Source: an uncultured delta proteobacterium (GTDB lineage Bacteria; Desulfobacterota; Binatia; UBA9968). Taken from it: a stretch of 43,047 nucleotides of DNA. The position numbers and the translations under genes were made by a program. The notes below the pieces were generated by a model that was given only the letters and a program-made list of their open reading frames with translations, was not told the origin of the DNA and did not search any database. The stretch spans positions 1 to 43,047 of the forward strand of contig CAVTUQ010000033.1 in the NCBI GenBank assembly GCA_963737905.1, given 5' to 3'. Numbering within the stretch: the stretch's first letter is position 1; each line of letters begins with the position of its first letter. Of the stretch, positions 30,683-32,735 are shown piece by piece.

Positions 30683-30712
30683 CCCAAGGGCCAGAAGACA
30701 ACAACGAGTTAC

Positions 30713-30797
30713 TCACCACGAAGGTCGCGAAGGACACGAAGAACCGGATAACGAGAGGGCACCTGAATCTGAAACAAAACTTTTTCCTTCGTGCTCT
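30713..30797. repeat. REP-like palindrome of CACGAAG (9-bp period) units, right arm interrupted by IS110
   Basis: Left arm CACCACGAAGGTCGCGAAGGACACGAAG; the right arm starts CTTCGTGCTCT at 30787-30797 and resumes CTTCGTGGT at 32346-32354. Confidence 0.8.
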
Positions 30798-30825
30798 CCT
30801 TAGAAAATTTGGCTGGGGGTGGGGC

Positions 30826-32100
30826 TTACGCTGCATCAGCCATAGGTGAAAGTTCCACTTCTTGTCCGAGTTCTTGGAGTCTTCGGACATGGTAACGAAT
30901 ACGTTGTTGAGGATTGAGTTTATCAAAGTAATCAACACCAAGATCCTGGTAGGGCTTGTCATCGCGGAGCATGAAATAGACAGTCACGAGCAGGCTGTGC
31001 TTGACGGCGCCGATGGCGCGTTTTTTTCCACGCCGGCCCGCCAGACGATGGTACTGCGCTTTGAAATAGCTGTTTTTGGTACGTACCGCCGCGTGCGCCA
31101 TCTCGGTCAGCACCGCGTCGAGGTGACGGTTGGCAGCGGGGGTTTTGCCGCTGCGCCGTTTGCCGGCACTTTCATGGTTACCCGGACAGCGGCCCGCCCA
31201 AGAGGCAAAGTGCTTGTGGCTCGGGAATCGACTCATGTCAGTCCCGGTTTCCGCCAACAGTGCTCTAGCCCCACGCTCGCCCACCCCCGCCATCGCATCG
31301 AGCTGCTCTACGGCGGCACGAAACGAGGGGGGCGCTACCGCCCCCAGCCGCTCGCTCACGCTGGCGATCTCCTTTTCGAGAAAGTCGTACTGTCCGAGCA
31401 ACTGCCGCAACAAAAAGCGGTGATGCTCGGTCAGCTCTCCTTCCAAAGCGCGCTGCAACTCGGGAATCTTGCCGCGAAGCTGGCGCTGGGCCAGATCCGC
31501 CAGCACGGTAACGTCCTTTTCCCCCGCAATCAGCGCTTCAATCATCTTGCGCCCCGACACCCCCAACACATCACTGGCCACCGAGCCCAACTTGATGTTG
31601 GCGGTCTCCAACACCTTCTGGATCCGGTTGTCGACAGCATTTCGCTGCTGCACCAGCTTGGTTTGTTGGCGGGTCAGATCGCGCAGCTCCCGCTGCTCGC
31701 GGTCGGGGACAAAACTCGGCCTGAGCAGCCCACACTGCAACAGCTGCGCTATCCACTCCGCGTCCTTCATGTCGGTCTTTCTCCCAGGCACCTTCTTGAT
31801 GTGCTGGGCGTTGACCACCCACACCTGAAAATGGCCTTCGAGCAGGTTGAACACCGGCTGCCAGTACACCCCCGTCGACTCCATCGCCACATGCGTCACT
31901 TTCAGCTCCGCCAACCACTGGCGCAACTCCAAAAGATCCGCCGCCATCGTGCCGAACTTGCGCAGCGTGCTCTGCACCGTGCCATCCTTCGAATCCAGGA
32001 TGCGCACGCACGCCACCACCAGTTTCTTGTGCACGTCCAATCCACACACACGCGCAAACAGCGCCTGCAGCCCCGCAAGGCTACTCTTCTTCTTGCTCAT
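30826..32100 (-). CDS. IS110 family transposase/recombinase
   Basis: DEDD RuvC-like domain (CGLDVHKK, AMESTG, RKTDMKDA) and C-terminal Tnp domain (GVG...A, FPSHKHFASWAG, ESAGK); RBS GGGGAG. Confidence 0.95.
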   Translation of the reverse strand: MSKKKSSLAGLQALFARVCGLDVHKKLVVACVRILDSKDGTVQSTLRKFGTMAADLLELRQWLAELKVTHVAMESTGVYWQPVFNLLEGHFQVWVVNAQHIKKVPGRKTDMKDAEWIAQLLQCGLLRPSFVPDREQRELRDLTRQQTKLVQQRNAVDNRIQKVLETANIKLGSVASDVLGVSGRKMIEALIAGEKDVTVLADLAQRQLRGKIPELQRALEGELTEHHRFLLRQLLGQYDFLEKEIASVSERLGAVAPPSFRAAVEQLDAMAGVGERGARALLAETGTDMSRFPSHKHFASWAGRCPGNHESAGKRRSGKTPAANRHLDAVLTEMAHAAVRTKNSYFKAQYHRLAGRRGKKRAIGAVKHSLLVTVYFMLRDDKPYQDLGVDYFDKLNPQQRIRYHVRRLQELGQEVELSPMADAA

Positions 32101-32119
32101 AGACGCTCCCCCTTTCTTT

Positions 32120-32280
32120 CGGTGCTCCCAGGGGACATCCGGCTTATTCGATTCTCCTTCGCGTGCTCTCGTCGGCAGACAACAAGGCGACAATCTGAGG
32201 CGCCGAAGGATGTCCCGGATCACACTTCGTGTCGGGCTCTCGCGCTCCAATCACTTACCGATCTCTTCGCTGGGGCACCG
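32120..32280 (-). ncRNA. Candidate IS110 bridge RNA
   Basis: Outer stem 32120-32131/32270-32280 encloses two hairpin domains (GGGACATCC 32132-32140 with GGATGTCCC 32208-32216; GATC 32218/32260) that contain matches to the element junctions. Confidence 0.6.
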
Positions 32281-32360
32281 CCCCCTTATTACCTCAACCC
32301 TCCCCCATTTTCATCTTCTGTGGGCGAGCGTAAGATCATGAATCACTTCGTGGTCATCCG

Positions 32361-32735
32361 TTAGTGCACGGACTTGCTACCGACGGTCGTAACCGTGATA
32401 TGCGACATCGGCGAATCCGCTTTCGCGCCGTGCCAGTGCCGCTCGCCGGATTTGATGTGCACGACGTCGCCGACGGTTATCTCGCGCTCTTCCTTCTCCG
32501 TTGCAACCATGCCCCGCCCGGATGTAACCACCAAGATCTGATCGCAGTCGTGGGTATGCCATCCGGTGGTGGCGCCTTCGCGGAAGTTCACCACGTTGCA
32601 GCGAAAGTTATCGGATTGGCCGTCGCCGATGATCGCTTGCCGCGTCCGGCTGACGGGTCCCCCTTTCCATCCGGCAATGGGCGTAGCGCTGTCCATGGGG
32701 TTTTCCGGCAGATCATGAATTTTGAGTACGCGCAT
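32361..32735 (-). CDS. Cupin domain protein
   Basis: TGWHTHDCDQILVVTSGRG...GDVVHIKSGERHWHGA. Confidence 0.85.
   Translation of the reverse strand: MRVLKIHDLPENPMDSATPIAGWKGGPVSRTRQAIIGDGQSDNFRCNVVNFREGATTGWHTHDCDQILVVTSGRGMVATEKEEREITVGDVVHIKSGERHWHGAKADSPMSHITVTTVGSKSVH

Follow-up and report, generated by a model that had tools for sequence, protein, structure and literature searches.

An IS110-family element whose left end probably encodes a bridge RNA with exchanged guide sides

The element, its ends and its target

The window (the whole 43,047-nt stretch of DNA that we analysed, contig CAVTUQ010000033.1 of an uncultured delta proteobacterium) carries on its minus strand an IS110-family element, the features of which are collected in Table 1. 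The inferred product of its recombinase gene has both a DEDD RuvC-like domain and a Tnp domain, the combination that marks the family, as judged by its matches to the Pfam profiles DEDD_Tnp_IS110 (PF01548; 1.6e-31) and Transposase_20 (PF02371; 7.6e-19), and it scores 297.6 bits against the NCBIfam profile NF033542, 'IS110 family RNA-guided transposase', for which the cut-off is 140. The non-coding ends have the layout of the family as well: one is long (the left end, 245 nt upstream of the gene, 32101-32345), the other is short (the right end, only 28 nt after the stop codon), a core dinucleotide is present on both sides (CT at 30796-30797 and at 32346-32347), and there is no further duplication.

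The boundaries of the element are fixed by 10 copies of the left end in the same genome, every one of which adjoins ACCACGA followed directly by AG, and are also backed by MITE-like relatives, by uninterrupted copies of the target repeat and by 12 close relatives of the element. In the orientation of the element the four half-sites are ACCACGA (LT), TGATTCATGA (RD), CTAAGG (LD) and AGCACGAAGG (RT), and the uninterrupted copies of the host repeat read ..CACCACGA-AG-NNC(A/G)CGAAG... The element targets the end of a palindromic repeat, about 100 bp long and built of CACGAAG-like units (30703-30797 together with 32348-32354 in the window; L006, L010 and L013 elsewhere). The target pattern gave 40 hits in the genome, in which CACCACGAAG occurs 44 times as against some 15 occurrences expected.

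Both ends carry conserved motifs. ATTTTC precedes CTAAGG in the right end (GAAAAT on the plus strand, 30803-30808), and the pattern of ATTTTC, 5-6 nt and the core was found at the right ends of the other families listed; an ATGAAAA motif is present upstream of the gene in the listed homologous loci. By eye, ATTTTC near the right end (30803-30808) and GAAAAT in the left end (32307-32314) form a short subterminal inverted repeat, which is asymmetric (6 nt versus 33 nt from the core) and has G-rich runs further inward.

Table 1. Coordinates, in the window, of the element, its target and the segments of its left end
Feature	Position	Strand	Remarks
Whole IS110-family element, both core dinucleotide copies included	30796..32347	-	CT on the plus strand, AG in element orientation
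Recombinase gene, 424 aa	30826..32100	-	Pfam and NCBIfam profile matches
Short right end, 28 nt	30798..30825	-	last 6 nt CTAAGG = left donor half-site
Left end, first 41 nt	32305..32345	-	contains TGATTCATGA, seg1 (32315-32326) and conserved ATGAAAAT (32307-32314); retained in MITE-like relatives
Left target half-site ACCACGA (TCGTGGT on the plus strand)	32348..32354	-	end of palindromic genomic repeat
Palindromic target repeat, body	30703..30795	.	last bases = right target half-site AGCACGAAGG (element orientation); 80-83% match to uninterrupted L006, L010, L013
P1, 5' strand (outer stem round both domains)	32270..32280	-	pairs with 32120-32131; 11 pairs, 98.5% paired, 2 compensatory
P2, 3' strand UGAUC (domain 1 stem)	32218..32222	-	pairs with GAUCG, 32259-32263; 5 pairs, 100% paired
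P3, 5' strand (domain 2 stem)	32208..32216	-	pairs with 32132-32140; 9 pairs, 95.4% paired, 1 compensatory
Domain 1, conserved distal hairpin GGAGC-GCGAGA-GCCC	32234..32248	-	GG.GC...GCCCG across families; 4 pairs invariant in alignment A1
Domain 2, distal stem-loop GUCG ... CGAC	32171..32191	-	compensatory GUUG/CAAC in L025
Loop 1, 5' side, GUAAGUGAUU	32249..32258	-	putative antisense guide for right-end flank; contains AATCACTT
Loop 1, 3' side, G-ACACGA-AG-UG	32223..32233	-	sense copy of left-end flank + core + first 2 nt of element; contains CACTTCGTG
Loop 2, 5' side (seg2), GGCGCCUCAGAUU	32192..32204	-	sense near-copy of element positions +20..+31
GAGAGCACG (= CGTGCTCTC of the earlier note)	32162..32170	-	contains conserved GCACG; no target guide
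Loop 2, 3' side, CGAAGG-AG-AA	32152..32161	-	copies right end + core (+2 nt) in sense; includes TCTCCTT
Repeat CACTTCGTG	32223-32231 = 32344-32352		same sense
Repeat AATCACTT	32249-32256 = 32341-32348		same sense
Repeat CGTGCTCTC	32162-32170 = 30790-30798		same sense
Repeat TCTCCTT	32153-32159 = 30795-30801		same sense

A second copy of the element in the same genome (L002, contig C26:211292-212790) is 94% identical to that in the window; its recombinase gene is frameshifted, leaving pieces of 272 and 164 aa, and it has no recognisable right end. In addition, about eight MITE-like elements of some 250 bp each share with it the initial 41 nt of the left end, have a similar right end, contain neither the gene nor the bridge RNA, and lie at the same site, ACCACGA followed by AG, the stretch in common being 32305-32354 of the window. 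Such elements would need to be mobilised in trans. The loci in question are L005, L007, L008, L009, L011, L012 and L014, with more diverged ones at L015, L018 and L020, all in the element's own genome, and the interiors of those in the range L005-L014 consist of hairpin modules such as GTCATTCCAGCATGGAGTGCTGGAATCC, which resemble REP-type repeats. For the host genome the practical consequences are small: it has a single intact element and a single decayed copy, together with about eight MITE-like elements, all directed at one palindromic repeat.

Metagenome-assembled genomes that bear the labels Actinomycetes, 'delta proteobacterium', Binatia, Verrucomicrobiia, Acidiferrales and Chromatiales contain recombinases 81-98% identical to that of the window (L021-L030, L042), a spread that suggests either wide transfer or binning errors.

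A two-domain fold in the left end

The earlier note, written from the sequence of the window, had described the left end as an outer stem enclosing two hairpin domains, and covariation bore this out. In an alignment of 12 close relatives (A1) we identified 36 pairs in six helices, with 98.1% of the cells paired; five of the pairs were changed on both sides, a number reached in 0 of 500 shuffles, and when the partners were slid against one another only 33-43% of the cells paired. RNAalifold returned 50 pairs, four of them compensatory. Folding energy alone was not significant (z of -1.24, with 26 of 200 shuffles folding equally well), and a search of Rfam at E up to 10 returned no family, just two sub-threshold chance hits.

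The outer stem, P1, encloses two domains with the stems P2 and P3. In P2 the compensatory combination GACCG/UGGUC occurs in L026, and one G-U pair, which fits a minus-strand RNA alone, is present in 12 of the 12 sequences. Because the G-U pairs, including this one, fit only the minus strand, we assign the RNA to that strand. P2-type stems of unrelated sequence are predicted in the minimum-energy folds of other families, each folded separately. The left end has, in short, the conserved fold with two internal-loop domains by which a bridge RNA may be recognised.

Is the left end transcribed? Contigs assembled from RNA libraries (four runs from four studies, the contigs stemming from relatives of the element) cover it, and two short ones, from two studies and 197 and 187 nt long, reach over 32132-32296 and 32118-32288, approximately the core of the RNA. 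Since the strand and the ends of such contigs are unreadable and DNA may be present in such libraries, we take them as a weak hint of RNA. In none of the four RNA runs did a contig link the right end with the left, so that there was no sign of the circle; stretches of the element left uncovered by these runs carry no weight. The earlier note had also proposed a promoter (TTCTAA-N17-TACGCT, minus strand) that would form only at the junction of the circle. The two hexamers do arise there, but by hand count each agrees with the consensus at only three of six positions, and a promoter scan detected no sigma-70-like site either in 32000-32500 or across the natural end-to-end junction in L024.

A terminator-like hairpin with a U-rich tail lies inside the donor domain on the minus strand (32188-32205; one found as against 0.4 expected). 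It might give rise to an RNA with the target loop only, as reported in the available description of CazIS110-1, or be due to chance.

Guide segments in the two loops

The interpretation of the left end as a guide RNA had its origin in four short repeats shared by the two domains and the two junctions of the element (Table 1). When the sequence was re-read and the matches were recomputed, all four were present and all overlapped the CT core, which is itself real, as judged by the 10 left-end copies and the uninterrupted target repeats. In the RNA, CACTTCGTG becomes CACGAAGUG and TCTCCTT becomes AAGGAGA. The earlier note had cautioned that some matches of 7-9 nt may be due to chance. As a set they exceed chance: comparing the 240-nt end with two 24-nt junction windows, we counted six same-sense matches of at least 7 nt as against a mean of 0.70 expected from 2000 dinucleotide-preserving shuffles (P of four or more, 0.006; two 9-mers in 0 of 2000 shuffles), a count inflated by the target itself, which repeats CTTCGTG. 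The sole antisense match of 7 nt between the end and the junctions was TCCTTCG.

To follow these segments across homologs we collected 79 loci from genomes and 80 from metagenomes. By hand count, the segment right after the conserved hairpin of domain 1 is, in 31 of 36 loci, an exact sense copy of at least 7 nt of the left junction of the same locus. Across 19 families the 3' side of loop 1 matched its own left junction in the sense orientation over a mean of 8.89 nt, as compared with 4.93 nt for the RNAs of other families, and the own match was the longest of its row in 15 of the 19; the antisense match to the left junction displayed no excess in these families (4.84 nt own, 4.90 nt others). 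Within the family of the window, nine natural variants of the 3'-side guide were found, each beside a fitting flank (ACACGAAG, CCACAGAG, ACGCAAAG and CGAAGGAG are examples), and 12 distinct pairs of guide and flank agreed at 64 of 72 positions, which 0 of 20000 permutations attained. This natural reprogramming was first noticed in L027 and L042. Because the segment covaries with its own flank both over the 19 families and within the family, CACTTCGTG is, from these comparisons, the putative left target guide followed by the core and 2 nt. In 17 independent families the 2 nt after the core match the first 2 nt of the element at 30 of 34 positions and the other flank at 13 of 34, and beyond these 2 nt the 3'-side guides do not run on into the partner DNA. 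The guides look like junction matches because of this handshake-like extension, by which each continues for 1-2 nt beyond the core into the opposite partner.

In some members of the family the target guide is identical to the donor guide (CGAAGGAG; L138, L148, L165-L169, L185, L189 and L027). These members adjoin ATTTTC(G/A)AAGG followed by AG, which is the right end of a relative, giving head-to-tail arrays; tandem joints are present in L024, L160, L032 and L033.

The 5' side of loop 1 appears to read the other flank and the other strand. In a permutation test over the 19 families, for which the 5' sides were set by hand, this side was complementary to the top strand of the core and right flank (own score 5.26 versus 4.54, out of 8; p ~0.002). 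In the family of the window, guides with GCG lie beside CGC flanks in 8 of 10 cases and guides with GUG in 4 of 29 (Fisher p = 2.8e-4), and by inspection L140 (UUUGCG and CGCAAA) and L164 (UUAGCG and CGCTAA) are complementary over 6 bp each. In the copy in the window, only four of the eight positions of this guide pair with the flank. Loop 1 as a whole can pair with both strands of the target across the core, with strong agreement on its 3' side and moderate agreement on its 5' side.

In loop 2 it is again the 3' side that copies DNA at a junction, in this case the right end and the core. The mean sense match to the own right end was 8.26 nt in the 19 families, as against 5.04 nt for the RNAs of other families, which supports pairing with the LD half of the donor; the antisense match to the right-end junction was 5.00 nt own and 4.85 nt others. 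The core dinucleotide is the same at both junctions in 17 of the 19 families (hand count). For the RD half, that is, the first bases of the left end, no guide was found in the 19 families (antisense 4.89 versus 4.77; sense 5.00 versus 4.65), and inspection of loop 2 by eye revealed nothing on its 5' side that covaried with this half. One candidate for such a guide, GCACG in a pairing with the conserved left-end CATG, was rejected, as it showed no covariation.

What occupies the 5' side of loop 2 is a segment, seg2, that copies seg1 of the left end (32315-32326, about +20..+31), just ahead of the conserved motif ATGAAAA(T/C), and the spacing of seg2 from the core in the RNA equals that of seg1 in the DNA. 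Exact identities of 8-10 nt between the two were found in L031, L037, L043, L044, L046, L055, L057 and L073/L083, and looser ones in the family of the window; the own match averaged 7.05 nt as against 5.11 nt for others in the 19 families, so that seg2 covaries with seg1 across families. The seg1 stretch is retained by the MITE-like elements. No third RNA segment complementary to seg1 or seg2 was apparent by eye in L031, L038, L057 or L073. We suppose that seg2 may be a second contact with the donor, or else a part of the scaffold.

The repeat CGTGCTCTC, considered as a target guide, was rejected. It overlaps GCACG, a motif that in 10 of 17 independent families, all of them with different flanks, stands directly 5' of the loop 2 guide, and the segment is invariant in the 12 close relatives despite their varying right flanks. 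Because the motif stays constant while the flanks differ, the match is evidently coincidental.

These results bear on the model of the earlier note, in which the four repeats would be same-sense guides, two to a domain, with each domain reading one junction; such an architecture would serve, for example, excision. That all four matches exist and overlap the core is in keeping with the model, as is the description, in the text of PMC13626964, of IS621 junctions that also serve as substrates for excision. But GAGAGCACG contains a motif that is constant while the flanks differ, AAGUGAUU does not track the left junction (in L027 it is CCGUGAG, beside GGAG followed by TGATT) and covaries in antisense with the other flank instead, and the 3'-side guides stop matching the partner beyond 2 nt. 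We consider four guides of one sense very unlikely. Both 3'-side segments, those of CACTTCGTG and TCTCCTT, covary with the DNA across the 19 families and within the family and are retained as real guides in our reading, and the AATCACTT segment belongs to an antisense guide that covaries with the other flank. What endures of the earlier interpretation is a guide RNA of an IS110-family element that has two domains and departs from IS621, and what falls away is the grouping of four sense guides by junction.

As a control, the IS621 copies of E. coli W were run through the same script. The target loop had its sense match, to the left junction, on the 5' side and its antisense match, to the right junction, on the 3' side, and in the donor loop the sense match to the right end appeared on the 5' side, in agreement with the IS621 layout as described in the published text (Durrant 2024, PMC11208160; Hiraizumi 2024, PMC11208158; PMC13626964).

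Could the repeats act instead as DNA, as binding sites or pseudo-targets of the recombinase, or could the left end be a structured 5' leader that controls only the translation of the recombinase? The transcript and the promoter are unproven, and the end of the leader lies 20 nt from the start codon and close to GGGGGAG, a run resembling a ribosome site. The helices, however, pair through two-sided changes and use G-U pairs, and the matching segments of 19 families sit in unpaired sides of loops beside a copy of the 2-nt core, a pattern that is the same as that of proven bridge RNAs, as the IS621 control illustrates. We judge a role as DNA or as a mere leader to be extremely improbable; the non-coding end very probably encodes a real bridge RNA.

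Guide order and comparison with known systems

Taking the fold and the guides together, we conclude that the 245-nt left end probably encodes a minus-strand bridge RNA in which the sides of the guides are swapped relative to IS621. In this RNA, P1 encloses two domains, of which that of P2 would bind the target and that of P3 the donor. Loop 1 has on its 3' side ACACGA-AG-UG, a sense copy of the left-end flank and the core that would pair with the bottom strand, and the last two letters of which copy the first two of the element in the manner of a handshake guide; on its 5' side, ..GUGAUU is complementary to the right-end flank's top strand; and the 3' side of loop 2 (CGAAGG-AG-AA) is a sense copy of the right end and core. 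In the mechanism that we propose, the complex of RNA and recombinase would bring the repeat target, ..CACCACGA-AG-NNC(A/G)CGAAG.., together with the ends that are joined in the excised circle, and strands would be exchanged at the core, as in IS621.

The swap depends on how the loops are closed, and the RNA might be an ordinary IS621-type bridge RNA in which the flank-matching segment is the 5' side of a differently closed loop, the exchange of sides being an artefact of the assignment of helices. Consistent with this, P2 is backed in the close family by one compensatory pair only, and the minimum-energy folds vary in detail among families; outside the close family, the P2 assignment behind the mirrored order is a prediction from folding energies, to which no statistical test is attached. 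Yet P2 is fully paired in the close family, with its G-U pair in every one of the 12 sequences, a P2 of 8 bp directly follows the guide in L038, and the flank-matching segment always comes after the 3' strand of the conserved hairpin. Moreover, whatever the fold, the RNA carries its antisense guide 5' of the sense guide, whereas in IS621 the sense guide comes first. We regard an unswapped bridge RNA as improbable, and the sequence comparisons indicate that the order of the guides is mirrored relative to IS621, in a variant common to a broad clade.

The mirrored order becomes familiar when the plus strand is read, on which the core is CT, since the layout is then that of IS621: a right guide, the complement AG of the core, and the handshake on the 3' side. 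In the proposed mechanism the sense and antisense guides would have changed sides of the loop, and reading the opposite strand would restore the IS621 geometry. Because it does so, the genes would be inverted relative to the polarity of the recombination sites, and the simplest reading would be that the complex is the same and that only the genes are inverted.

A further proposal, which we put forward tentatively and as possible rather than probable, is that a widespread clade uses a bridge RNA with inverted site polarity, with an IS1111-like order upstream of the gene, and with seg2 as a guide that reads the left arm 20-31 nt inside the element. If this reading were true, seg2 and the right-end guide would both pair with one DNA strand, a donor geometry not described for IS621. 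Members of the clade occur in records labelled Bacillota, Chloroflexota and Planctomycetota and in soil metagenome-assembled genomes. Engineering of bridge recombinases follows the rules of IS621, and a large natural clade appears to differ: it appears to place its long, specific guide on the 3' side and to insert in the opposite orientation relative to the genes, and perhaps it reads a second site inside the donor. If so, design rules on the side of the guide, the strand and the minimum donor would not be universal, and there would be an evolutionary link between the layouts of IS110 and IS1111.

The element shares much with IS621. In both, a long non-coding left end lies upstream of the gene for a DEDD/Tnp recombinase, the RNA has two internal-loop domains, the target one first and the donor one second, the guides read the core dinucleotide (CT on one strand), and the target is a palindromic genomic repeat. 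On its 3' side the target loop of either element continues beyond the core with two letters that agree with the other DNA partner, and in IS621 the principle of the handshake is just such an extension of the guide past the core into the other partner, according to the text of PMC11208158. The differences are as follows. In IS621 the 5' sides are sense (bottom-strand) left guides and the 3' sides antisense right guides, and here the arrangement is reversed, with sense guides on the 3' sides in the clade of the window element. An outer stem surrounds both domains here, unlike in IS621. No near-core guide for the left end was found in the families compared; instead the 5' side of loop 2 copies +20..+31, and the IS621 model does not predict that this side of the donor loop copies an internal segment of the element. 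The protein has 424 aa as against 326 aa in IS621 and forms a separate long branch. In a recombinase tree of 27 rows, from which L099 was left out (its frame has only 261 aa), IS621 with ISBth13, a Klebsiella plasmid element and this clade all lay on long branches, and from the tree the clade could be attached to neither IS110 nor IS1111. A protein search of the plasmid collection returned generic names only and no named close relative.

The order of the guides recalls the seekRNAs of IS1111-type elements. In ISEc11, ISKpn4 and ISPa11 a complement of the top strand lies 5' of a match to the bottom strand, as described in the text of Siddiquee 2024 (PMC11187229) and PMC13604230, and the same order is found here; another likeness is the presence of short subterminal inverted repeats, which in this element are GAAAAT/ATTTTC, by eye. 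Unlike the IS1111-type seekRNAs, which by the account in PMC11187229 are encoded downstream of the transposase gene, the RNA of the window lies upstream of the gene, as in IS110-type elements, and only 28 nt follow the stop codon. In the running text of the literature searched, we found no mention of a bridge RNA that lies upstream and has the IS1111 order. CazIS110-1 of Caloranaerobacter azorensis (bioRxiv 10.1101/2025.10.25.684509), compared by its description only, has a host in the Bacillota, as do many members of the clade. Finally, ISEc21, which is of the IS110 type, resembles the element of the window in that its non-coding region is upstream of the gene and its RNA matches both strands of the target (PMC11187229, in the text available). 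The order of its matches is the reverse of that of IS1111, that is, IS621-like (PMC11187229, PMC13604230, likewise), and is opposite to the order here.
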